Assembly (NCBI GenBank): GCA_022826705.1
Contig: JAJDUJ010000029.1
Coordinates: 11,026 to 75,025, forward strand
Source: Acidimicrobiia bacterium
GTDB taxonomy: Bacteria; Actinomycetota; Acidimicrobiia; Acidimicrobiales; Bin134
Direction of reading: 5' to 3'
DNA: 64,000 nt
Shown: piece after piece, positions 13,312 to 23,736 of the stretch
Position numbering within the stretch: the first letter of the stretch is position 1
How the letters are laid out: each line of letters opens with the position of its first letter
Program-made: the position numbers and the translations under genes
The notes under the pieces: generated by a model
Told to the model about the DNA's origin: nothing
What the model saw: only the letters and a program-made list of their open reading frames with translations
Databases searched by the model: none

Positions 13312-16300
13312 ATGGATGACTTCCTCGTAGACCGGGATCCCACAACTTGGTCGGCACCGGCAGGGTTTCCGTCATCACTGACGCCGGCGGGGGTGTTTGT
13401 TCAGGATGCTCCAAGCGGGTTGGAGGTGACGCTGGTTCGAGCGTCTAGTAAGCCCAGGACAGCGGAACTGCGTGATGGGTGGTCAAAGCGGCGGGCCGGG
13501 CGGGCCAGCCCGGTGCTGCTGGTGGCGTTCTATCCCACTGCTGAAGGTCAGCTGGTTTCCTTGTGCGGCCCGGTGGGGGAGCCGCCGGTGGTGCACCACG
13601 ACCTCGAAGTGTCGCAGGCCGAGCGCCTGTCTGAGGTGGCGTTGAGCGAGCCCAGCCACCATGCTGCCACCCGGTTCCTGTTGGCGGCCATGCCCGAGCT
13701 GGAGTCGCCTTTCCCCGGACTCCGCAACGTTGGCCTGTTGGCCACTCAAGAACTGAGGGCTGGCGTACCCGATCGAACAGACTGGCCAACCGCTAGCCAT
13801 AAGTCATTGGCGCTTCTTGGGCGTCGAGGCCGACGACTGGTAGAGGGCTTGGGCTTTCACATCCAGACGCTGGCCACCAATGCCTCTATGCTCACCATTG
13901 ACGGCCGCAATCATGCCGTGGCCGTGTTTTGCGACGAGGACGAGCCCTTCGAGGCGCCCTCGAACCGGTTCGACAACACCTCCCCGGTGTCGAGGGCTCT
14001 GGCTCTGGCCGACCAGCACCGGGTGGACTGGGTGATTCTCACCCGGTCGTCGGAGATCCGCCTCTACGCCGCCCGTCCCGACACCGGTGTGGGCCGCAAG
14101 GGTCGGGCCGAGACGTTCGTGGAGCTGAACCTGTCGCTCGTTCCCGATGAGTTGGCCGGCTACCTGCACCTGCTGTTCTCAGCCGATGCGCTGGCCGACA
14201 ATGGCACCCTCGATCAGATACTCGAGCACTCGGCCGATTTCGTCGCCGAACTGGCCGTTCGGCTTCGAGAGCGGGTGTACCACCAGACGGTTCCGGCACT
14301 GGCCAACGCGGTGGCCGCCCGGCGGTCTCGTGATCGACACGGAGACGACTTGGGCGAAGGCGATCAGGCCGACGCCTACGAGCAGGTGATGGTGATCTTG
14401 TTCCGGCTGCTGTTCGTGGCCTACGCCGAGGACAAAGACCTGCTGCCCTATCGCACCAACGGGCGCTACGCCGACCACTCGCTGTCACATATAGCCCGGC
14501 TGCTGGCCGATGATCGCCGCCTGGAACGTGCCGACTATGACGAGCAGGCCACTGATCTGTGGGACGACGTAAACCAGCTTTGGGATGCAGTCAACCACGG
14601 CAATGCCGACTGGGGCGTGCCCGCCTACAACGGTGGCTTGTTCTCCGCCGATCCCGAGGTGAGTCCGTCGGGAGCGGCCATCGCCCATATCAGTCTGACT
14701 AACGCCGAGTTCGGTCCTGCTCTCTCCGCGGTATTGGTGGACCAGAGCCCCGAGGGGGTGGGGCCAGTGGACTTCCGCTCGCTGTCCGTGCGGGAGTTCG
14801 GCACCATCTACGAGGGCCTCTTGGAGTCGAAGCTGTCAGTGGCCCAAGACGATCTGGCCATCAAGACCATCAAGGGCAAAGAGCAGTACGTGCCCGCGGC
14901 CGGAGACGACGAAGTGGTAGTGGAGGCAGGTGCGGTGTACTTCCACAACCGCTCTGGGGTGCGCAAGGCCACGGGCTCCTACTTCACCAAGCCGTTCGCC
15001 GTCGAACATCTGCTCGACAACGCATTGGAGCCCGCCCTCGATGACCATATCGCCCGGCTCGACGACCTGCGAGAGCGAGGCGACGACGCCGCGGTGGCCG
15101 AGGCCTTCTTCGACTTCCGCTGCGCCGACATCGCCATGGGCTCGGCCCACTTCCTGGTGGCCGCCGTCGACCGCATCGAGGCCCGCCTATCGGCCTGGCT
15201 CACCCTCCATCCCGTTGCCGCCGTGACCGCAGAACTGAACCGTCTGCGCACCACCGCCCTCGAAGCTCTGGGCGATCTGGCCGACGGGGTGCCGATCGAA
15301 TCCGGTTCCCTACTGCGCCGCCAAGTGGCCCGCCACTGCGTCTACGGCGTGGACAAGAACCGAGTAGCCGTCGAGCTCGCCCGTCTCGCCATCTGGGTCC
15401 ACACCTTCGTCCCCGGCCTCCCCCTGTCGTTCCTAGACCACAACCTGGTCCAAGGCGACAGCCTGACCGGGGTGACGTCTGTGGACGATGCCGCCGCAGC
15501 GGTTGCGCCGAAGGGGAGCAAGGACGGGGCATCGCTGTTTGTTCATCAGTTGGAGAGTCTCTTGGAAGCCTGCCAAGCGCCCCTGGCTCGACTCGGGCGG
15601 CTCAACGACGCAGACAAGGCCGAGATCGAAGCAGCCCGAACCGCCCACGCCCAGACCCGTGAGGCTGTCTTACCGGCCGAAGCCGTTTTCGATGTGGCCA
15701 CCGCAGTGCGTGCGGGGGCCATTGAAATACACAAGGACTTCGACTTCAGCCCAGAGAAGGTGGCATCCCTAGCCGAACAGTCAGCCGTGCGTGCCGCGGT
15801 GGAGCGGATGACCCCGGTCCACTATCCGACGGTGTGGCCAGAAGTGTTCGCTCGGACCGAGCGAAGCGGCTTCGACTGCCTGCTGGGCAATCCCCCTTGG
15901 GAGAAAGTAGTGGTGGACAGGGAAGTCTGGTGGGGGATGCACCTACCGGGCGTCCGGTCGCTGCCAGTGGCGAAGCGGCGAGCCCGCATCGATGCTCTAG
16001 AGGCACAGCGGCCAGACCTAGCTGAAGAGTTCGAAAGCGAAAGGGAGCGGGCCGAAGCGCTCAAACTGGTACTGCGAGCCACGTTCCCCAACCTCGGGTC
16101 AGGGCAAACCGACCTCTACAAAGCGTTCTCCTGGGCCAACCTCGCCTTGTGCCGAGAAGGAGGCAAGATCGGTATGGTGCTGCCTCGGTCCGCGGTATCT
16201 GACGCTGGCATGGCCAACTGGCGAACCGAGATCGTCGGTGCTCCTATCAATGACGCAACTAAGCGCAGGGGGGGGGTACCCAGCCCGATGCGGCTATCGG

Positions 16301-16977
16301 TGGCCACGGTCATCAACCACAAGGGCTGGGTGTTCGAGGGGGTCCACAACTCCTACACGGTGGCGCTGGTGGCGGTCACCCGGTCTTCTCCGTCGTCACC
16401 TGCCTCAACACCAAGCATTGGGCGTTCGACGGGGTCGACGGCCGCTACACCGTCGCGCTCGTCGCCGTCCGCAAGCTCAGCCCCCGAGCCGAGCCAAGGG
16501 GGTGGCTTTGAGGGCGACCCAGATGAGCCGCATGTAGCCATCTACCCCGGCCCGGCGAGTTCGCCAGCCCATTTCCACACCATGGTGGACGGGAAACCGG
16601 AACTTGTGCCGGTATCGGAGTTCACCCGGTGGTCAAACACGGCGGCCTTCCCCCAGATTCCAACACGACCCGCCTTCCGCGTCTGGCGCAAGATCAAACA
16701 GCATCCTCGCTTCGACGGCGCCGACGTATCTGATCCCGCTGACTCTCTCTCTCTCTCTCTCTCTCGGAAAGCCGCGGAACTGGCGCTTCCGACCGGTTCA
16801 GGGCGACCTCAACGCGACCAACGACCGCCACCGGTTCTGGAACGACGACGGACGTGGCGCTTCCGGGCAGTGGCCGAGTTCCACGCGACGCACGACCGGA
16901 GCAGGTTCGTGAACGACGATGGCGCTTCCGCCCAGTTCGAGAATTCGACGCGACGCACGACCGGAGCAGGTTCGTGA
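13312..16977 (+). CDS. Type IIG/Eco57I-like gamma-class N6-adenine DNA methyltransferase (current phase state, 1221 aa)
   Basis: GSYFTKP, ADIAMGSAHFL (motif I), YGVDKN, LLGNPPW (motif IV), TDLYKAF, WVFEGV (motif VIII); N-terminal WVILT...RLY region. Confidence 0.9.
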   Translation: MDDFLVDRDPTTWSAPAGFPSSLTPAGVFVQDAPSGLEVTLVRASSKPRTAELRDGWSKRRAGRASPVLLVAFYPTAEGQLVSLCGPVGEPPVVHHDLEVSQAERLSEVALSEPSHHAATRFLLAAMPELESPFPGLRNVGLLATQELRAGVPDRTDWPTASHKSLALLGRRGRRLVEGLGFHIQTLATNASMLTIDGRNHAVAVFCDEDEPFEAPSNRFDNTSPVSRALALADQHRVDWVILTRSSEIRLYAARPDTGVGRKGRAETFVELNLSLVPDELAGYLHLLFSADALADNGTLDQILEHSADFVAELAVRLRERVYHQTVPALANAVAARRSRDRHGDDLGEGDQADAYEQVMVILFRLLFVAYAEDKDLLPYRTNGRYADHSLSHIARLLADDRRLERADYDEQATDLWDDVNQLWDAVNHGNADWGVPAYNGGLFSADPEVSPSGAAIAHISLTNAEFGPALSAVLVDQSPEGVGPVDFRSLSVREFGTIYEGLLESKLSVAQDDLAIKTIKGKEQYVPAAGDDEVVVEAGAVYFHNRSGVRKATGSYFTKPFAVEHLLDNALEPALDDHIARLDDLRERGDDAAVAEAFFDFRCADIAMGSAHFLVAAVDRIEARLSAWLTLHPVAAVTAELNRLRTTALEALGDLADGVPIESGSLLRRQVARHCVYGVDKNRVAVELARLAIWVHTFVPGLPLSFLDHNLVQGDSLTGVTSVDDAAAAVAPKGSKDGASLFVHQLESLLEACQAPLARLGRLNDADKAEIEAARTAHAQTREAVLPAEAVFDVATAVRAGAIEIHKDFDFSPEKVASLAEQSAVRAAVERMTPVHYPTVWPEVFARTERSGFDCLLGNPPWEKVVVDREVWWGMHLPGVRSLPVAKRRARIDALEAQRPDLAEEFESERERAEALKLVLRATFPNLGSGQTDLYKAFSWANLALCREGGKIGMVLPRSAVSDAGMANWRTEIVGAPINDATKRRGGVPSPMRLSVATVINHKGWVFEGVHNSYTVALVAVTRSSPSSPASTPSIGRSTGSTAATPSRSSPSASSAPEPSQGGGFEGDPDEPHVAIYPGPASSPAHFHTMVDGKPELVPVSEFTRWSNTAAFPQIPTRPAFRVWRKIKQHPRFDGADVSDPADSLSLSLSRKAAELALPTGSGRPQRDQRPPPVLERRRTWRFRAVAEFHATHDRSRFVNDDGASAQFENSTRRTTGAGS
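16268..16276 (+). repeat. G9 homopolymer inside the methyltransferase gene
   Basis: AAGCGCA-GGGGGGGGG-TACC. Confidence 0.95.
16294..16469 (+). repeat. Two paralogous 28-codon modules (16294-16377 in frame; 16386-16469 in another frame), offset 92 nt
   Basis: LSVATVINHKGWVFEGVHNSYTVALVAV vs FSVVTCLNTKHWAFDGVDGRYTVALVAV; 17/28 identical. Confidence 0.9.
16497..16512 (+). promoter_or_regulatory. Candidate prfB-type +1 programmed ribosomal frameshift signal
   Basis: AGG GGG TGG CTT TGA G in the module-B frame; same geometry as E. coli prfB AGG GGG TAT CTT TGA C; a +1 shift enters the main ORF frame. Confidence 0.65.
16743..16765 (+). repeat. (CT)11C microsatellite inside the methyltransferase gene
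   Basis: GA-CTCTCTCTCTCTCTCTCTCTCTC-GGAAA, encoding SLSLSLS. Confidence 0.95.
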
Positions 16978-16995
16978 ACGACGATGGCGCTTCCG
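16781..16995 (+). repeat. Tandem diverged repeats (74, 65, 65 nt plus a partial fourth), each starting TGGCGCTTCCG
   Basis: Starts at 16781, 16855, 16920, 16985; units encode WRFRPVQGDLNATNDRHRF, WRFRAVAEFHATHDRSRF, WRFRPVREFDATHDRSRF in three different frames. Confidence 0.92.
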
Positions 16996-17011
16996 CCCAG
17001 GAGCAGCGGCC

Positions 17012-17758
17012 ATGAGTGAGGCATGGCCAGTGTACAAGGGCACGTCGTTCAACCTTTGGGAGCCCGACACCGGCATCTATTACGACAGCGCAGACGCAGA
17101 GAGCATGATCGCTCATTTGCATGAGAAGCGGCTGTCGCAGCGTCGTACCCATTCATCGGCGTTCGCCCAACAAGACCAATCGGTCACCGACGATCCAGCA
17201 ACGCTGCCTTGTCGGCATCCGCGTATCGCATTGCGAAATGTGACTAACCCCACGAATACACGCACGCTTCTTGCCGCACTGGTTCCCGGTGATCGGGTGA
17301 TTGTGCATCACGCCCCCTATCTGCTGCGTACTGCGGGTTCGGCTGCTGACGAGGCGTTTGTTCTTGGTGTTCTGTGCTCAATGCCCTGTGACTGGCAGGC
17401 CCGGCGGACTGTCGAGTTGAACCTGACGTTTGAACAGCTCAACTTACTGTCCATTCCCGATCCTGGAAGAGGGCATCCCGTTCGCGACCGAGTAGCAGAA
17501 ATCGCTGCCCTACTAGCTGCCCAAGACGACCGGTTCTCTGGATGGGCCGCTGAAGTAGGCGTGCCTGTCGGCACTGTTGACGCGGGGGGGGGGGCTTGGC
17601 TGCTAGCCGAATTAGACGCCTGTGTCGCCTATCTCTACGGCTTAGACGAGGACGACATCACGGTGGTGTACGACACATTCGGTCGTCCGGGACAGTGGGA
17701 TGAACGACGCGACGCCGTCCTCTCCTGCTTCCGCCGAATCGGGGATTCATGGACCTGA
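17012..17758 (+). CDS. Separately encoded target-recognition (specificity) subunit S1, 248 aa
   Basis: AGGAG RBS at 16999-17003; WPVYKG...PRIALRNVTNPTNTRTLLAALVP...ELDACVAYLYGL, resembling the type IIG C-terminal TRD. Confidence 0.8.
   Translation: MSEAWPVYKGTSFNLWEPDTGIYYDSADAESMIAHLHEKRLSQRRTHSSAFAQQDQSVTDDPATLPCRHPRIALRNVTNPTNTRTLLAALVPGDRVIVHHAPYLLRTAGSAADEAFVLGVLCSMPCDWQARRTVELNLTFEQLNLLSIPDPGRGHPVRDRVAEIAALLAAQDDRFSGWAAEVGVPVGTVDAGGGAWLLAELDACVAYLYGLDEDDITVVYDTFGRPGQWDERRDAVLSCFRRIGDSWT
17584..17594 (+). repeat. G11 homopolymer inside S1
   Basis: GAC GCG GGG GGG GGG GCT TGG. Confidence 0.95.
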
Positions 17759-18521
17759 AGATGCCGCGTCTGAGTTCAACGAGATTTGGCCGGTCTACAA
17801 GGGCACCTCGTTCAATCTCTGGGAGCCGGACACAGGTGTCTACTACGACAGCGCGGATGCTCAGACCATGATTACTCATCTTCAGGAGAAGCGACTGTCG
17901 CAACGCCGCACCCGGACGTCTGCATTTGCTGAGCAGGACGAATCAGTTGCTGATGACCCTGCAACGCTGCCCTGCTTGAATCCCAGGATCGCATTTAGGG
18001 ATGTTGCCCGATCGACAGATACACGAACGCTCATAGCTGCTCTTATTCCCGGTGTCCGGGTAATTGTGCATCAGGCGCCCTACTTGCTTCGCACTCTTGG
18101 TGCAGGCAGGGATGAGGCGTACTTGCTCGGTGTCCTGAGTTCAATGCCTTGCGACTGGCAGTCCCGGCGCACTGTCGAACTGCACATGACCTTTGAGCAG
18201 TTTGGTCTGTTGTCCATTCCCGACCCCGGAGAGGGTCATCCTGTCAGGGACCGAGTCGTGGAAATCGCCGGCCGCCTGGCTGCGGTGGACGAGCGGTTCG
18301 CGGAATGGGCGGCAGAGGTGGGGGTGCCGGTGGGGTCGGCCAATGACGAGACGGCCAAACAAGACCTCATCTGTGAGCTCGACGCCTGCGTCGCCCACCT
18401 CTACGGCCTCGACGAAGACGACTTGGCCGTGGTCTACGAAACCTTCAGCGAAACCGTTGACTACTCCGACCGCCACGCCGCCGTCCGCACCCATTTCAGG
18501 AAGCTGCATGACTGCGGTTGA
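17700..18521 (+). CDS. Second specificity subunit S2 (paralogue of S1), 273 aa; start uncertain
   Basis: WPVYKG...PRIAFRDVARSTDTRTLIAALIP...ELDACVAHLYGL; colinear with S1 at a 763-nt offset. Confidence 0.78.
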   Translation: MNDATPSSPASAESGIHGPEDAASEFNEIWPVYKGTSFNLWEPDTGVYYDSADAQTMITHLQEKRLSQRRTRTSAFAEQDESVADDPATLPCLNPRIAFRDVARSTDTRTLIAALIPGVRVIVHQAPYLLRTLGAGRDEAYLLGVLSSMPCDWQSRRTVELHMTFEQFGLLSIPDPGEGHPVRDRVVEIAGRLAAVDERFAEWAAEVGVPVGSANDETAKQDLICELDACVAHLYGLDEDDLAVVYETFSETVDYSDRHAAVRTHFRKLHDCG

Positions 18522-21500
18522 GAAGCCCGAGTTGGCCGTTAACCGGGGCCAGGACACGGTGGCGGGAGCGCTGAACGGGTTCATTTCCCATGCCGCAACC
18601 GGGTTTGTGGGCGGGGCCTGTTTGGATGTGGCCACTGCCTATTTCAACGTGGGCGGCTACTCGCTGCTGGCCGATTCGCTGGATCAGGTCACTGGCGTGC
18701 GGCTGTTGCTGGGAGCGGAGCCGACCCCTCCGGAGAGCCGCCGGCGGGCGCTGCGGACTGAATCGGCCAATCCCCAGCGGGCGATCCGGGCTCGGCTGCG
18801 CCAGGCGCTTGAGGGCCACGAGCAGAACCTTGTGGTTGAGCGAGACCACTTGGGGTTCACGTTTGAGGTTGATGCCTCCACTCGCCGGCTGGTGAAGTGG
18901 CTGCGCTCGGAGAATGTTAAAGTGCGCCGTCTGGAGGGGCGGTTCTTGCACGGCAAGGCGTTCTTGGTGGGGAACCGCTCCCATGGGGTGGTGGCCGGTT
19001 CGTCCAATTTCACCTATGCGGGGTTGGCCACCAACTTGGAGCTGAACCTGGGCAACTACTCGCCCCATGTGGTGGGTCAGGTGCGCGACTGGTTCGAGGA
19101 ACTGTGGGCCGAGGCCGCGGAATACGACTTGGCCTCGCTGTTCGAGGCCCGATTCGAGCCTCACTCCCCTCAGCTCGTGTATCTGCGAATGCTGTGGGAG
19201 TTCTACGGCGAGGAACTCGAGGCCGAGGCCGCCGCCGAAGGCGCGCCGCAGATTCACCTCACCAATTTCCAATCAGACGGGCTGTGGCGGGCCCGGCGCA
19301 TCTTGGACGAGCGCAACGGGGTCCTCATTGCTGACGAGGTCGGCCTGGGGAAGACGTTCTTGGCCGGAGAGTTGATCCGGGAGGCGGTGCAGGATCGTCG
19401 TCAACGGGTGTTGGTGATCACCCCTGCCACGCTGCGCGACGGGCCGTGGCGGGCATTCGTTCATGAGCACTTGTTGGCGGTGGAGCTCGTGTCGTACGAG
19501 GAGCTGATGGCCGACAGCCGCCTAAACCCCGAGCACACAACTGCCATCAAGCTGAAAGCTGCCATCAACGAATACGCCATGGTGGTGATCGACGAGGCCC
19601 ACAACCTACGCAATCCTGGCACCCAGCGGGCTCACGCGCTGCGCCAGCTGTTGGCAGGATCGCCTCCCAAGGAGCTGGTGATGCTCACCGCTACTCCGGT
19701 GAATAACAGCCTGTGGGACTTGTATCACCTGCTGGGCTACTTCTTACGCAGCGATGCTGTGTTTGCCGATGCTGGCATTCGCTCTCTGCGCGACCACTTC
19801 GCCAAAGCGATGGCTCTCAACCCCGACGACCTCACCCCCGAGCATTTGTTCGACGTGCTGGACGCGGTGGCGGTCCGCCGAACCAGGTCGTTTGTCAAGC
19901 GCTTCTACCCCAATGACACCATCAAGGTCGGCGGGCAAGAACGGCAGATCGTCTTCCCCACTCCCCGGGTCCACAAGGTGGACTACAACCTCGACGAGGT
20001 GATGCCCGGTTTCTTCGACCGGTTTGCCGATGCGCTCGATCCCGACGCCAGCGTCGAAGATCCCGGCGTGCTCACGATGGCTCGGTATTCGCCATCGCAG
20101 TTTCGTTTAGACCATGAGGAAGATGCTTACGAGAAACAGCTTGCCGGGCTGTTGCGATCTGGATTGCTGAAGCGTTTCGAGTCTTCGCCCTATGCCTTTG
20201 CCGAGACCTGTGAGCGAATGGCCAAGAGCCATGACACCTTTCTGTCGCTGCTCGACAACGGCCGGGTAGCCACTGGCGACGCTTTGGCTGACTGGATCGC
20301 CACCGACTCCGACGAGATGGACGAAGATCAGGTCGACACCTTCCTGGGCGGAATCGTCGGGGTGTCCGATGACGCGGCCGAGTACGACCTCGAACATCTC
20401 CGAGAATACGTGGACCGAGATCGAGACCTGCTGAGGTCGTTCGTTGCCGAGGCCCGCACCGTCACCCGCGCAGATGATCCCAACCTGAACGCCTTGGTTG
20501 AAGAGCTGGCCCAGATCTCCGCCGATGCCGCTGCTGAAGGTATCGGCCCCGACGACGTGCGCGATCGGGGCAAGGTATTGATCTTCAGCTATTACGCCGA
20601 CACCGTCGCCTGGGTTTTTGAGCATCTGGTTTCCACTGTTGAAGCCGATGAGCGCCTGGCTCCCTATCGAGGTCGCATCGCCTCGCTAGCGGGCAACTCC
20701 GGCTCGGGGAGCAAGGAGCGAGTGCTGTGGGGGTTCGCCCCCAAGACCACCGATGCCCCCGAGGGCGCCGATGAAGACCTGTTCGACATCGTGGTGGCCA
20801 CCGACGTGCTGGCCGAGGGGGTTAACCTCCAGCAGGCCCGTCACATCATCAACTACGACCTGCCCTGGAACCCGATGCGGCTGGTACAGCGCCATGGCCG
20901 CATAGATCGCATCGGCTCGCTCCACACCGAGGTGTTCCTGCGCTGCGTGTTCCCCGACGATCGCCTCGACGACCTGCTCGGTCTCGAAGAGCGACTGCAC
21001 CTGAAGATCGCCCAGGCTGCCGCCAGCATCGGCGTTGGCGAGGTGCTGCCCGACCAAGTTACCCAAGTCGAGACCAACTTCACTGAGACCAAAGAGGAAA
21101 TCGACCGTCTTCGCAACGAAGACGCTGAGTTGTTCGAACGAGGCGGCACCGCCCGAGGCGTACTGTCGGGCGAGGAGTTCCGCCAAGAACTGCGCCAAGC
21201 CCTTGAAGACTCCGACCTGGCCCGCCAAATCAAGTCCCTCCCCTGGGGCTCAGGCTCAGGCATGGCCGTGGCAAGCCCCGATGGCCACCCCGGCTACATC
21301 TTCTGCGCCCGAGTAGGCGACCACCCCAAACCCCTATTCCGCTTTATCGAAACCGGCTCCGATGCGGACAGTTCCGTGGTAGACGAAACCTTGGCCTGCC
21401 TCCACAAAGCCCGCCCCCCAGATGGTTTCGGCACCGACCGCCAATTGGACGACGCCACCATCCAAGCCGCCTTCACCGCCTGGGAGACCGCCCGCGCTCA

Positions 21501-21843
21501 CATCGTGGAGCGGTGGAACTTCATGTCCGACAAAGCCAACCTAGAACCCAAAATCCCACCCCGCCTCCGCCGTGCCGCCGACATCCTCCGAGAGCACTCA
21601 CCCCCCGACCTCACCCAAGAAGACCTTGACCGCGCTATAGACACCATCAACGCCCCCTACCCCGAACGCACCATCCGCACCCTCCAAGCCGCTATCAGCA
21701 ACATCGAAGACCCTGCCCAGCAAGCCCAAAATATCCTCAACACCATCCACCACCTAGGCCTACAGCCCTACACACCCCCCACCCCCCTCCCCGAAATCCA
21801 CAAAACCGACGTCCACCTAGTTACCTGGCTAGCACTGACCTGA
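18508..21843 (+). CDS. PLD-nuclease domain fused to SNF2-family helicase, 1111 aa
   Basis: ATAYFN, LHGKAF...GSSNFT...NLELN (PLD); ADEVGLGKT, IDEAHN, LTATP, EGVNLQ...NYDLPWNP...QRHGRIDRIG; AGGAAG RBS before ATG 18508. Confidence 0.9.
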   Translation: MTAVEKPELAVNRGQDTVAGALNGFISHAATGFVGGACLDVATAYFNVGGYSLLADSLDQVTGVRLLLGAEPTPPESRRRALRTESANPQRAIRARLRQALEGHEQNLVVERDHLGFTFEVDASTRRLVKWLRSENVKVRRLEGRFLHGKAFLVGNRSHGVVAGSSNFTYAGLATNLELNLGNYSPHVVGQVRDWFEELWAEAAEYDLASLFEARFEPHSPQLVYLRMLWEFYGEELEAEAAAEGAPQIHLTNFQSDGLWRARRILDERNGVLIADEVGLGKTFLAGELIREAVQDRRQRVLVITPATLRDGPWRAFVHEHLLAVELVSYEELMADSRLNPEHTTAIKLKAAINEYAMVVIDEAHNLRNPGTQRAHALRQLLAGSPPKELVMLTATPVNNSLWDLYHLLGYFLRSDAVFADAGIRSLRDHFAKAMALNPDDLTPEHLFDVLDAVAVRRTRSFVKRFYPNDTIKVGGQERQIVFPTPRVHKVDYNLDEVMPGFFDRFADALDPDASVEDPGVLTMARYSPSQFRLDHEEDAYEKQLAGLLRSGLLKRFESSPYAFAETCERMAKSHDTFLSLLDNGRVATGDALADWIATDSDEMDEDQVDTFLGGIVGVSDDAAEYDLEHLREYVDRDRDLLRSFVAEARTVTRADDPNLNALVEELAQISADAAAEGIGPDDVRDRGKVLIFSYYADTVAWVFEHLVSTVEADERLAPYRGRIASLAGNSGSGSKERVLWGFAPKTTDAPEGADEDLFDIVVATDVLAEGVNLQQARHIINYDLPWNPMRLVQRHGRIDRIGSLHTEVFLRCVFPDDRLDDLLGLEERLHLKIAQAAASIGVGEVLPDQVTQVETNFTETKEEIDRLRNEDAELFERGGTARGVLSGEEFRQELRQALEDSDLARQIKSLPWGSGSGMAVASPDGHPGYIFCARVGDHPKPLFRFIETGSDADSSVVDETLACLHKARPPDGFGTDRQLDDATIQAAFTAWETARAHIVERWNFMSDKANLEPKIPPRLRRAADILREHSPPDLTQEDLDRAIDTINAPYPERTIRTLQAAISNIEDPAQQAQNILNTIHHLGLQPYTPPTPLPEIHKTDVHLVTWLALT

Positions 21844-21999: not shown

Positions 22000-22075
22000 T
22001 GGTGGTCGGGACCGGCGTCGATCCGGTGACCTTCCGCTTTTCAGGCGGACGCTCTGCCAACTGAGCTACCCGACC
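22000..22075 (-). tRNA. tRNA-Phe (GAA)
   Basis: GGTCGGGTAGCTCAGTTGGCAGAGC...CTGAAAA...CCCGACCACCA; CCA encoded. Confidence 0.95.
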
Positions 22076-22088
22076 ATGTTCTGTTGTG

Positions 22089-22163
22089 CGGTCCCGACGG
22101 GATTTGAACCCGCGACCTCCGGCTTGACAGGCCGGCGTGCACTCCAAACTGCACCACGGGACC
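22089..22163 (-). tRNA. tRNA-Asp (GTC)
   Basis: GGTCCCGTGGTGCAG...CTGTCAA...GGTTCAAATCCCGTCGGGACCG. Confidence 0.95.
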
Positions 22164-22231
22164 ATGCTGTGGGGCTTATGCACTCTACTCGCGCGCCGGG
22201 TGGACTGTTCTACTCGAATTTCCGCCTGGGA

Positions 22232-22321
22232 GCTTCGGGTGGCCAGGCCCTCGGGATCGAAGTTGGGTTCGCCCTGGAGTTGGGTGATCCGCAGGGCGAC
22301 CTGATCGACATGGCCCTGCTC
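22232..22321 (-). pseudogene. 30-codon relic of a bacterioferritin-like gene
   Basis: EQGHVDQVALRITQLQGEPNFDPEGLATRS resembles the EQxHADxIAxRIxQLGGEPxFxPxGLxxRS segment of ferritin-like proteins (recalled motif). Confidence 0.55.
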
Positions 22322-22324
22322 AAT

Positions 22325-22361
22325 CCTTGAAATTCCACTATTGCATAGTAGAATTTCAAGG
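22325..22361. promoter_or_regulatory. 37-bp AT-rich palindrome just upstream of the AAA ATPase
   Basis: CCTTGAAATTC-C-ACTAT-TGC-ATAGT-A-GAATTTCAAGG. Confidence 0.6.
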
Positions 22362-22374
22362 ATAAACTGGCCGA

Positions 22375-23535
22375 GTGCCATTGATTGCTCGGTCGGTTGA
22401 CACGCAGAGGCTGCGCGAGGCGATTTCGCATGCTCCGGTGACGTTGCTCACCGGTCCTCGTCAGGCAGGGAAGTCCACTCTGGCGGGCCAGACCGTTAGC
22501 TCGTCGCCGGCTGCGTTCTTCGACCTTGAAGATCATCGCGACCTCGCCCGTCTCGCCGAGCCGACGCTGGCTCTGCGCGACACCGGCGAGACGATGGTCA
22601 TCGACGAGGCCCAGCGGATGCCGGAGTTGTTCCCCACGCTTCGCGTGCTCGTGGATGAGAACCGCAGGCCGGGCCGGTTCGTCGTGCTGGGCAGCGCGTC
22701 TCCCGACCTTGTCGGCCTCGGCTCGGAGTCGTTGGCCGGCCGGGTGACGTTCGTGGAACTCGGGGGCTTTCGGCTCGCCGATGTCGGCCCTGAGCGTCTC
22801 GACGACCTGTGGCTGCGAGGGGGCCTGCCGGAGTCCTTCGTGGCGGCCACCGATGAGGCGTCCAACCGGTGGCGCGACGATTACATCTCCACTTTCTTGG
22901 AGCGCGATCTGGCCGCTTTGGGCTTCAGGTTTCCGGCCACGACGATGCGGCGATTCTGGACGATGCTGGCCCATTATCACGGGCAGACCTGGAACGGGGC
23001 CCGCATCGCCCGGTCGATCGATGTCTCGGAGTCGACCGTGAGACGCTATGTCGACGCGCTGAGCGATGCCTTGGTGGTGCGCCAACTGCGGCCGTGGTTC
23101 ACCAACATCTCGAAGCGCCAGGTCAAATCGCCTCGGGTCTACATCCGCGACTCGGGCCTGCTGCACCGCCTGCTCGGGATTTCCACGATGTACGACCTCG
23201 AGCGATCCCCGATGCTCGGCGCGAGCTGGGAGGGCATGGTGGTCGAGCAGATCCTCACCAGATTCGCCTCCGCCGACCCAACCTACTGGTCGACCCATGG
23301 AGGTGCGGAGCTTGACCTGCGCCTGGAGACCGACGGACGGGTCCTCGGATTCGAGATCAAGCGCACGGCCCAGCCAGCGGTCACGAAGTCGATGCACATC
23401 GCCCTAGCCGACCTCGAACTCGACCACCTCTTCGTCGTGTACGCCGGCCCCCACCGCTTCGCGCTCACCGATCGCATCACCGCCATCGGGGCGGCAGACC
23501 TCCTGACCGCTCAAGATCCCTTGTCCGCGCCCTAG
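22375..23535 (+). CDS. AAA_14 family ATPase with DUF4143
   Basis: LTGPRQAGKST, VIDEAQ, VLGSAS, ESLAGR, LRGGLP, KRQVKSPRVYIRDSG, ELDL..FEIK. Confidence 0.9.
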   Translation: MPLIARSVDTQRLREAISHAPVTLLTGPRQAGKSTLAGQTVSSSPAAFFDLEDHRDLARLAEPTLALRDTGETMVIDEAQRMPELFPTLRVLVDENRRPGRFVVLGSASPDLVGLGSESLAGRVTFVELGGFRLADVGPERLDDLWLRGGLPESFVAATDEASNRWRDDYISTFLERDLAALGFRFPATTMRRFWTMLAHYHGQTWNGARIARSIDVSESTVRRYVDALSDALVVRQLRPWFTNISKRQVKSPRVYIRDSGLLHRLLGISTMYDLERSPMLGASWEGMVVEQILTRFASADPTYWSTHGGAELDLRLETDGRVLGFEIKRTAQPAVTKSMHIALADLELDHLFVVYAGPHRFALTDRITAIGAADLLTAQDPLSAP

Positions 23536-23663
23536 CGCTCCGGATTCGATGCGGGTGGCAGGGCGCCGCTGTCCACGGCGCACCCTGTGTCGTTTTCTCC
23601 GAAGGCGAACCATGAAGCCCAAGGGTCTTCGACACCGCGATGCACGACCGCGGCTGAAACTAG

Positions 23664-23736
23664 CACCCCCAACGGGATTCGAACCCGTGTTACCGCCTTG
23701 AAAGGGCGGCGTCCTAGGCCGCTGGACGATGGGGGC
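23664..23736 (-). tRNA. tRNA-Glu (TTC)
   Basis: GCCCCCATCGTCCAGCGGCCTAGGAC...CTTTCAA...GGTTCGAATCCCGTTGGGGGTG. Confidence 0.95.

Follow-up and report, generated by a model that had tools for sequence, protein, structure and literature searches.

What does a dinucleotide repeat do inside a methyltransferase gene if each of the three reading frames 3' of it leads to its own copy of the same protein element? This question is raised by a locus in a 64,000-nucleotide stretch of DNA from an Acidimicrobiia bacterium (hereafter the window, i.e. the whole stretch analysed), where a (CT)11+C tract lies inside a 1221-aa open reading frame, 29 nt 3' of the codons for HPRF. The explanation that we consider best, with a probability of about 0.6, is a three-state specificity selector with no OFF state, placed in the hinge between the methyltransferase and recognition domains. 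The three-position selector is the well-supported part of this reading; a shift in DNA specificity is what we infer from the behaviour of the unit flavours and from structural analogy, i.e. the choice of frame probably re-aims the enzyme at another DNA motif instead of turning it off.

Anatomy of the locus

The M gene (Table 1) encodes an Eco57I-type N6-adenine methyltransferase with an NPPW motif, assigned by Pfam to PF07669 and by PADLOC to REase_MTase_IIG (PDLC03620, profile positions 56-1029 of 1378, E 8e-205). The S1 protein, whose N-terminus reads MSEA-WPVYKG, matches positions 1132-1371 of the same profile (E 1.6e-46). As in type IIG/IIL enzymes, a gamma-class N6-adenine methyltransferase domain is thus followed by a C-terminal recognition domain. 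In its present form, the M product ends with unit 2 and a 22-aa out-of-frame tail. Searches of the N-terminal 530 aa of M with Pfam and NCBIfam recognised no nuclease family. The PLD-SNF2 gene (PADLOC 'HKD+Snf2', E 1.2e-53), whose ATG overlaps the S2 stop by 14 nt, always adjoins the M gene, which suggests that restriction is delegated to this putative nuclease partner; the same partner is found 3' of a fused M gene in Geodermatophilus. The island consists of the M, S1, S2 and PLD-SNF2 genes only, and its neighbours are metabolic genes and tRNAs.

Table 1. Coordinates of the features of the locus, as positions in the window
Feature	Position	Strand	Basis or remark
M gene, current state, 1221 aa	13312..16977	+	Pfam PF07669, PADLOC, translation
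Upstream G9 tract, same M gene	16268..16276	+	second switch, apart from the (CT) selector
HPRF codons	16702..16713	+	last conserved M-core element 5' of the hinge
(CT)11+C tract, slippage-prone frame selector	16743..16765	+	encodes (LS)n or (SL)n in the hinge
Unit 1, WRFRPVQGDLNATNDRHRF, flavour QGDxN	16781..16837	+	window frame 2; stop TGA 16910-16912
Unit 2, WRFRAVAEFHATHDRSRF, flavour xExH	16855..16908	+	frame 1 (current); stop TGA 16975-16977
Unit 3, WRFRPVREFDATHDRSRF, flavour RExD	16920..16973	+	frame 0; stop TGA 17013-17015
Partial fourth unit, WRFRP-GAAA	16985..17011	+	in frame with S1; contains the S1 Shine-Dalgarno AGGAG
S1, rest of recognition and C-terminal domain, separate protein	17012..17758	+	PADLOC PDLC03620
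S2, second copy of the S1 domain	17700..18521	+	70% identity to S1
PLD(HKD)-SNF2 helicase-nuclease partner gene	18508..21843	+	Pfam PLDc_2, SNF2-rel_dom, Helicase_C

Units 1 to 3 all encode W-R-F-R-P/A-V-...-AT-x-DR-x-RF, in one frame each. Every copy falls in a new frame because the unit spacing (74, 65 and 65 nt; TRF period 65) equals 2 modulo 3. Unit 1, which starts one base earlier than a naive count gives, is read when the repeat number equals 12 modulo 3, unit 2 at the current (CT)11 and unit 3 when the number equals 10 modulo 3. The original prediction, made from the letters of the window, had the tract and the layout of three units in three frames correct to the base. Its product lengths of 1200, 1221 and 1233 aa for (CT)12, (CT)11 and (CT)10 and their stops (Table 1) were likewise recovered, as were the overlap of the unit-3-frame stop with the S1 start as ATGA (17012-17015) and, in units 2 and 3, a TGA as part of GTGAAC where unit 1 has TGGAAC.

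The partial fourth unit is a remnant of the ancestral unit-to-S junction; its AGGAG (16999-17003) lies 8 nt 5' of the S1 start. State 3 is special in being translationally coupled or fused to S, and the states could differ mainly in S supply. Two further homopolymeric tracts are present. S1 carries a G11 tract at 17584-17594, and the G9 tract of the M gene, whose length varies among samples, sets whether the M core reads through to the hinge. In most species-representative assemblies, the upstream G tract is such that M core and hinge region are in different frames, so the selector is often unexpressed in the assembled state.

Several other identities were considered for the system and rejected. 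For BREX (PglX/BrxX), the NF033451 score was 15.2 bits against a cut-off of 400, and no BREX partner genes were found; DISARM class 1 gave just partial matches to the DrmMI and DrmD models, without the DrmA and DrmB (DUF1998) that the class calls for; MANTIS/Gao_RL requires AAA+ partners, which are absent here. The frameshift suppression described for Mycoplasma mod in a preprint concerns leaky OFF states, not alternative segments. RNA runs were searched for the locus and none containing it was found; a search of the literature on the host genus gave nothing relevant.

Conservation, selection and repeat-length variation

The locus was compared with homologues in a set of 61 distinct loci, mostly one per species of sponge-associated Acidimicrobiia, with the HPRF codons as anchor in every comparison. 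A repeat occupies the same site in 59 of the 61. Its period was 1 in 24 loci, 2 in 28, 4 in five and 5 in four, and a period of 3 or 6 was found in none of the 61. The repeats include C/G runs, CT/GA/CA repeats, and tetra- and pentanucleotide repeats, the longest tracts reaching 243 nt. Three units in three frames are present in about 58 of the 61 loci, and this recurrence in independent loci places the layout far beyond chance. Units 1, 2 and 3 lie in frames f, f+2 and f+1 with open leaders in 47 loci, and most of the others proved to be arranged likewise on inspection. All three states occur in nature, the current frame falling on unit 1, 2 or 3 in 25, 16 and 16 loci, respectively.

Each unit is under purifying selection in its own frame. 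Variation is concentrated at the third codon position of that frame: at positions 1, 2 and 3, diversity amounts to.165,.064 and.435 in unit 1, to.243,.085 and.379 in unit 2, and to.236,.136 and.361 in unit 3. With 91% identity to consensus, unit 1 is better conserved across loci than the other two, the apparent conservation being inflated at fixed positions by the use of protein patterns in the unit search.

The length of the tract is polymorphic between close relatives. As read from assemblies, unitigs and Logan contigs rather than raw reads, the (CT)11 of the window corresponds to (CT)18 in a genome with 99% identical flanks and to (CT)9 in a 95%-identical strain, and four sponge samples from one study gave 11 repeats, at least 14, 11 with a minor longer allele, and at least 13. 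The locus thus shows two features of repeat-driven phase-variable (contingency) loci, an intragenic repeat whose unit is not a multiple of three and whose length differs among near-identical genomes (in contigs). Comparative, population and selection evidence support what had been proposed from the window, namely a selector with three positions, in which each frame contains one intact unit and closes soon after it, and no OFF length at the (CT) tract.

Possible roles of the units

The non-switching relatives form a sister family of more than 1800 proteins, which bear out the expectation of a single unit directly after HP-R-F/L (spacer of 9-10 aa); the E(F/L)xxTND..F element of type IIG enzymes, to which the original prediction likened the segment, corresponds to their consensus W-R-A-R-P-V-x-E-F-H-A-T-N-D-K. 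The same three flavours are found in this family (xE[FL]H, RE[FL]D and QGD[FL]N, counted 76/21/12), and they differ at a pair of residues i,i+3 (A/T..H, R..D and Q-G..N). Flavour is distributed at random on phylogenies, both on the M-region tree (27 changes vs 26.8 after shuffling) and on the S-domain tree (29 vs 30.6), and protein pairs with 80-90% identity share it in 56% of cases vs 54% by chance. In the catalytic domain, flavour 1 needs the D of the G-x-G-D-P-DLY loop to be replaced by N or H; at this position, the switching family has Q, H or N and never D. No covarying partner was found elsewhere in the protein for flavours 2 and 3.

Structure models place the unit as the ordered first element past the hinge between the methyltransferase and recognition domains. 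In the AF2 model of a single-unit protein (P0035, pLDDT 93.9), it is predicted as a strand plus an ordered loop (pLDDT about 95). In that of a natural state-1 fusion (L061), unit 1 is predicted to be ordered (pLDDT 82-85) with unchanged secondary structure, and the repeat-encoded and out-of-frame stretches have pLDDT below 50. The modelled fold matches CamA-DNA, BrxX/PglX-DNA, M.TaqI and MmeI, the best matches being BrxX/PglX and CamA (9ewz, 8c45, 7lt5); as PDB sequences yielded no usable match to either a fused homologue or the family profile, the link to BrxX and CamA is one of fold only. In BrxX, K681 and D684 just past the hinge read base pair 2, and their mutation alters specificity (PMC11842806). 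For CamA, residue 346 and Ile349, in the first loop of the recognition domain, read base pair 3 (PMC8187626). By chain order and rough spacing, the unit would be equivalent to BrxX 681-684 and CamA 346-349. The discrete and phylogenetically random flavours, their i,i+3 difference and a place matching the BrxX/CamA loop thus lend indirect support to the unit as a putative DNA-recognition segment, the role first proposed for it.

A mechanism can be proposed on this basis. The host system would be a two-gene, restriction-modification-like defence made of the M gene and the PLD-SNF2 nuclease-helicase gene. Slipped-strand mispairing would alter the length of (CT)n and, the period being 2, each step would shift translation to another frame, in which one of three tandemly arranged, diverged versions of the recognition domain's first element, with lengths of 2 modulo 3, could be read. 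Each frame is open up to its own unit and is closed about 22 codons later by a TGA within the next unit. Whatever the repeat length, the product would then comprise the complete M core, a disordered linker (made up of the repeat and the out-of-frame units) and a single ordered unit, of type QGDxN, xExH or RExD. The remaining part of the recognition domain (S1, S2) is made separately from its own SD/ATG, with a start overlapping the unit-3-frame stop. We infer that the i,i+3 pair of the unit (A/T..H, R..D or Q-G..N) would contact a single base pair, placed a few nucleotides 5' of the adenine that is methylated; in that case, switching would alter one motif position for both modification and restriction, and the system would not be turned OFF.

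A more speculative extension, which we hold to be possible rather than probable, is that the coding is frame-multiplexed throughout the operon. Each slippery tract would pick among DNA-contact elements lying in different frames: G9 between two versions of the catalytic-domain beta6-loop-beta7, (CT)n among three first recognition-domain loops, and G11 between S1 and S2. A recombinase-free operon could in this way yield a dozen or more specificities, and the unit flavours would constitute a one-base-pair code valid across the more than 1800 single-unit proteins.

The same selector might instead serve units that change something other than the DNA sequence read, such as S1/S2 docking, the tightness of split-domain assembly, the methylation-restriction balance, or how sensitive the enzyme is to phage inhibitors that mimic DNA and bind in the recognition cleft. 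We regard this as unlikely, albeit with several observations in its favour: the recognition domain is physically split directly after the unit in 46 of the 61 loci, several loci have two or three S genes, the covariation of flavour 1 with the catalytic-domain loop shows a protein-protein contact, and Ocr binds recognition-domain residues of BrxX (PMC11842806). However, all three flavours are kept with a single S domain at many loci and throughout the single-unit family, and no column of the S domain covaries with flavour.

It is quite improbable that the units are equivalent and act as a frameshift buffer, securing a complete protein at any repeat length, or upon slippage of RNA polymerase or the ribosome, in an insert-tolerant hinge that gained a slippery repeat. 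Such a buffer would account for the lack of an OFF frame and for a repeat-encoded linker that is predicted to be disordered, and tracts of up to 243 nt would slip in transcription too. Equivalent units are nevertheless hard to reconcile with three distinct flavours, the same as the alternatives of the single-unit family, kept over about 58 loci. Units 2 and 3 of the window agree at 45/45 flanking bases but differ at 8/21 bases of the flavour core, and the maintenance of four repeat classes at one site fits selection for mutability, not tolerance. Over all loci, concerted evolution of units 2 and 3 is modest, identity outside the flavour core being 0.79 within loci vs 0.74 between; as an argument, concerted evolution is strong at the locus of the window and at five others only.

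An effective ON/OFF switch, in which only the unit-3 frame, fused or ATGA-coupled to S, would give an active enzyme and the unit-1 and unit-2 frames a truncated, inactive or regulatory M, appears very doubtful. Conservation of the overlap between the unit-3-frame stop and the S start, seen as (A/G)TGA in 30 of 42 split loci, is in keeping with such a switch, as is the in-frame fusion of the last unit to S that persists in 15-18 of the 61 loci. Yet units 1 and 2 are under purifying selection in their own frames, unit 1 most strongly conserved of all, and the M core avoids the residue incompatible with flavour 1. In addition, S has its own start 4 codons 5' of WPVYKG, often with an SD, and an internal Met/Val is kept there even in fused loci. 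Finally, that the gene is decaying into a pseudogene, or that the layout is an artefact of assembling repeat-rich DNA, as might be suspected from the M gene being broken at the upstream G tract in many assemblies and from the poor handling of long repeats in MAG assemblies, is highly improbable in view of an identical layout in dozens of species, closed long-read chromosomes among them, of third-position variation that fits own-frame coding, and of stop-free leaders in at least 47 loci.

Relation to known systems and significance

Type I hsdS shufflons, as in Streptococcus pneumoniae and Mycoplasma, exchange silent and expressed cassettes by site-specific inversion. The present locus shares with them the stochastic production of several alternative specificity determinants (putative ones here) from one locus, but has no recombinase, the choice being made by the reading frame. 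In Haemophilus influenzae lic1, a (CAAT)n repeat brings start codons in different frames into use, i.e. alternative initiation at the 5' end. There too, the three frame states are all distinct and used, but their outcome is a level of expression and not an alternative protein segment as here.

A close comparison is with Helicobacter pylori, where frameshift-mediated specificity switching is documented for the type IIG enzymes JHP1272 (Hpy99XIV) and HP1353-HP1354 (HpyAXVI) (Krebes et al. 2014, PMC3936762) and where a frame change turns the motif GGWTAA into GGWCNA instead of affecting just expression (PMC3936762). Both cases have a simple repeat near the 3' end of a large methyltransferase gene, a frame at this repeat that sets the recognition element carried (with a motif effect that is conjectural here), and a second tract in the gene that acts as ON/OFF. 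H. pylori has two states, an extra C-terminal recognition domain being added or omitted and overriding part of the regular one, whereas here there are three, each frame with its own copy of one small hinge element and none without; in addition, the recognition domain continues here in a separate protein, and fold family and partner nuclease also differ.

Phasevarions rely on repeat-driven ON/OFF switching of type III mod or type I hsdM/hsdS genes (PMC5909438, PMC7383803). The intragenic methyltransferase repeat, slipped-strand mispairing and tracts hypervariable between close strains are common to both; in phasevarions, however, the result is ON/OFF or truncation with two of three frames dead, whereas all three frames are productive here and encode alternatives. 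Like BrxX/PglX and CamA, the M protein combines a gamma-class NPPY/W catalytic domain with a C-terminal recognition domain, joined by a flexible hinge. In BrxX and CamA, the first recognition loop past the hinge reads one base pair via residues i and i+3; unlike the present family, these two enzymes are not phase variable at the unit site.

Phase variation is normally a two-state ON/OFF affair in which two of three frames are wasted; here, all three store versions of an element, and a dinucleotide repeat works as a three-way selector without a recombinase. Such genes resemble frameshifted pseudogenes in assemblies, which leads to mis-annotation. If the units set one base of the motif, bacteria would have in this arrangement a compact means of rotating their restriction-modification specificity against phages. 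The pairs A/T..H, R..D and Q-G..N would further point to a naturally occurring residue code from which specificity might be predicted or engineered, and this code, if true, would cover a large uncharacterised family of methyltransferase and PLD-SNF2 defence systems.

Operon architecture and anatomy of the (CT)n tract

The methyltransferase gene (M) encodes an Eco57I-type N6-adenine methyltransferase (PF07669 match, NPPW motif) that matches the PADLOC REase_MTase_IIG profile at positions 56-1029 of 1378. It is followed by S1 and S2, separate recognition and C-terminal domain genes that are 70% identical copies, and by a PLD-SNF2 helicase-nuclease gene, with end-to-start overlaps throughout all four genes. 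The host belongs to a sponge-symbiont Acidimicrobiia lineage (Candidatus Poriferisocius group). No brx or drm genes were found in the flanks of the operon, which comprise metabolic genes and a tRNA cluster. This four-gene defence operon forms a compact island adjoining the tRNA cluster, which lies directly downstream of the helicase gene, with the metabolic genes upstream.

Coordinates of the operon and of its repeat-associated features in the window
Feature	Position	Sequence or description
HPRF codons	16702-16713	conserved; end of M core
(CT)11+C tract	16743-16765	in 1221-aa ORF 13312..16977; 29 nt 3' of HPRF codons
Unit 1	16781-16837	WRFRPVQGDLNATNDRHRF; frame +1 relative to current
Unit 2	16855-16908	WRFRAVAEFHATHDRSRF; current frame
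Unit 3	16920-16973	WRFRPVREFDATHDRSRF; third frame
TGA and in-frame ATG	16910-16921, 16975-16986	TGAacgacgATGG
S1	17012..17758	C-terminal part of REase_MTase_IIG family, profile 1132-1371
S2	17700..18521	C-terminal part of REase_MTase_IIG family, profile 1132-1371
PLD-SNF2 helicase-nuclease gene	18508..21843	after S2
G9 tract	16268-16537	tract itself at 16268-16276; region includes the two versions after it, VATVINHKGWVFEGVHNSYTVALVAV and VVTCLNTKHWAFDGVDGRYTVALVAV
G11 tract	17584-17594	within S1
tRNA-Phe, tRNA-Asp, tRNA-Glu genes	22000-23736	- strand

The original prediction was that a (CT)n tract is followed by three tandem copies of a short segment (units 1 to 3), one per reading frame; when recomputed, its description of the tract, the units, the stops, the product lengths and the TGA placement proved exact. 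Unit spacings are 74, 65 and 65 nt, every one equal to 2 mod 3, and the stops of the three frames lie at 16912, 16977 and 17015, i.e. (CT)12 gives 1200 aa, (CT)11 1221 aa and (CT)10 1233 aa. The frame-1 and frame-2 stops are the TGA within the next unit's GTGAAC (Val-Asn), and unit 1 has TGGAAC at the site where the following units have GTGAAC. The frame-3 stop and the S1 start share an ATGA (17012-17015), with AGGAG 8 nt upstream. Units 2 and 3 of the window are identical at 45/45 flanking bases and differ at 8/21 bases of the flavour-defining segment. Each frame-closing TGA is followed 6 nt on by an in-frame ATG: the one past the frame-1 stop (ATG 16919) opens a 279-aa ORF running into S1, and the one past the frame-2 stop opens an 11-codon ORF ending across the S1 start. 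These ATGs may act as termination-reinitiation relays to S1.

We propose that slippage of the repeat would set the reading frame, that the frame would decide which unit completes the M protein, and that this unit and S would together form the recognition domain. We give a probability of about 0.9 to the locus being such a three-state selector.

Single-unit relatives and structural models

A sister family of more than 1800 proteins (~1350 aa) carries M and S in one chain, with the repeat absent. As expected of non-switching homologues, these proteins have a single unit near HPRF (layout HP-R-L/F-D, 9-10 aa, one unit), with WPVYKG 28 aa past the unit's Trp. Their flavours are the same three as those of the switch units, i.e. 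xE[FL]HATNDK (76), RE[FL]DATNDK (21) and QGD[FL]NATxDK (12), and are unrelated to phylogeny: flavour changes numbered 27 on the M-region tree (26.8 with shuffled labels) and 29 on the S-domain tree (30.6 with shuffled labels), and flavour was shared in 56% of pairs 80-90% identical, against a chance expectation of 54%. The closest pair of discordant flavour (86% identical) differs in a ~20-aa patch around the unit. A loop of the catalytic domain covaries with flavour 1, the Asp of its G-x-G-D-P-DLY becoming N or H; the switching family, where one core has to serve all three flavours, has Q, H or N at that position, never D. From the shared flavours and these core-loop residues, we conclude that the switch units are the three naturally occurring alleles of a single hypervariable element, and the M core of the switching family appears adapted to all three.

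In Geodermatophilus, a PLD-SNF2 gene follows the fused sister-family gene. In G. saharensis (L081, FZOH01000001.1), this gene pair adjoins small HTH genes and a phage-type integrase, which suggests that integrative elements carry the two-gene system.

In an AlphaFold model computed for a single-unit protein of 786 aa (pLDDT 93.9, pTM 0.90), the unit is a short strand and an ordered loop (pLDDT about 95). It immediately follows the final helix of the catalytic-domain region and precedes the WPVY strand. Foldseek groups this model with CamA-DNA, BrxX/PglX-DNA, M.BseCI, M.TaqI and MmeI. A natural state-1 fusion was also modelled (L061, frame 1 running on into S; pLDDT 81.8, pTM 0.80), in which unit 1 is ordered (82-85) with the secondary-structure pattern of the single-unit model. 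The TGA of the unit-1 frame is gone from this 1534-aa ORF (L061:170-4772), which crosses ~65 aa of out-of-frame units to reach S, so that state 1 yields a full-length fusion. As its repeat-encoded and out-of-frame stretches fall below 50 pLDDT, the repeat would sit in a flexible hinge between domains, with the out-of-frame junk looped out.

The flavour-defining residues form an i,i+3 pair (A/T..H, R..D or Q(G)..N) that, by chain order and spacing rather than superposition, resembles residues of BrxX and CamA. The BrxX hinge comprises residues 638-675; G2 and C2' are read by K681 and D684, and changes to these residues alter the specificity for that position (PMC11842806). CamA reads base pair 3 via residue 346 and Ile349, in the first loop of its recognition domain past the linker at residue 320 (PMC8187626). 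We lean slightly towards the selector affecting one base pair of the recognition motif; the strongest rival is that the units instead alter docking, S choice or inhibitor sensitivity.

Conservation, selection and frame states across homologous loci

Homologous loci were retrieved with an alignment of the 75 aa preceding the repeat (56 in species-representative genomes, 12 in metagenomes), giving 61 distinct loci, window included. For each unit type, nucleotide diversity peaks at the third position of its own frame, with values at codon positions 1/2/3 of.165/.064/.435 (unit 1),.243/.085/.379 (unit 2) and.236/.136/.361 (unit 3), and own-frame identity to consensus is 0.81-0.91, versus 0.59-0.74 in other frames. 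The search by protein pattern biases fixed positions; given the signal at third positions and the almost complete set of recovered units, the conclusion of own-frame selection is robust. The tail after each unit is uniform, i.e. 21-24 aa (unit 1), 22 aa (unit 2) and 11-17 aa (unit 3). A rival reading makes the units a mere frameshift buffer.

An ON/OFF switch with frame 3 alone active is a further rival. In 30 of the 42 split loci, the stop of the unit-3 frame and the start of S share an (A/G)TGA, 4 codons before WPVYKG, and 15-18 loci retain a fusion of unit 3 to S. S has its own start in every state, the arriving M frame currently picks unit 1 in 25 loci, unit 2 in 16 and unit 3 in 16, and database proteins terminate in one of three conserved C-termini matching the frame states.

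The weakest rival, decay or artefact, faces a layout found in 47 of the 61 loci, with the order unit 1, 2, 3 in frames f, f+2, f+1 and a stop-free path from the repeat to each. Most loci missed by the protein patterns have the matching layout by eye, and a few loci have extra 65-nt unit-3 copies, only two units or the order 1-3-2. A simple repeat lies within about 150 nt after HPRF (mostly ≤90) in 59/61 loci; repeats comprise C or G runs (9-28 nt), CT/TC/GA/CA tracts (17-62 nt), CCGA/GACC/AGGC/ACCG (26-243 nt) and CGAGC/CCGAG/AGCCA/ACCGA (64-181 nt), with periods 1, 2, 4 and 5 counted 24, 28, 5 and 4 times, and no repeat of period 3 or 6 was found at the site among the 61 loci.

Two loci without a repeat (L026, L075) keep all three units; both are fixed in the frame of unit 2, whose flavour is the most frequent one among single-unit proteins. 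Giant repeats of ~60 copies of GACC (243 nt, L049) and ~36 copies of AGCCA (181 nt, L056) encode a low-complexity hinge of 60-80 aa. Copy number of the 65-nt unit 3 varies in L017, L060 and L063, giving 4-5 units; since 65 = 2 mod 3, an extra copy rotates the frame coupled to the S start, possibly a second, slower switch.

Tract-length variation and comparison with known switches

Compared with (CT)11 in the window, a genome with 99% flank identity on both sides has (CT)18, and farther relatives have (CT)9, (TC)16 and (CT)27. Four sponge samples from a single study show, in their Logan contigs, (CT)11, at least 14 repeats, (CT)11 together with a longer minor allele (depth 6 versus 33) and at least 13 repeats; a strain 95% identical from a different host has (CT)9. 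Since these contigs are unitigs, not reads, repeat-length spectra within one population are only hinted at.

Two other tracts of the operon likewise vary in length among these samples. The G9 tract, which differs by +2 and -4 between samples, precedes two versions of the catalytic-domain beta6-loop-beta7 segment in different frames; the CamA counterpart of this loop ('loop-2') faces DNA. In ~45/60 loci, as assembled, tract length at this site puts the hinge region in a different frame from the N-terminal 1000 aa, so the HPRF-holding ORF is only 215-330 aa. From these frames, expression of the selector would depend on a second switch, the upstream G tract. The G11 tract shows differences of +2, +4 and +12 between samples, and S1 is frameshifted at this site in several same-genus genomes (G004, G011, G020).

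The closest known system is H. pylori JHP1272 / HP1353-54, where a C-terminal domain, added through a second homopolymer tract, changes the motif (PMC3936762). The proposed device in the window differs in having three productive frames, each holding its own copy of one small element, without an OFF state.
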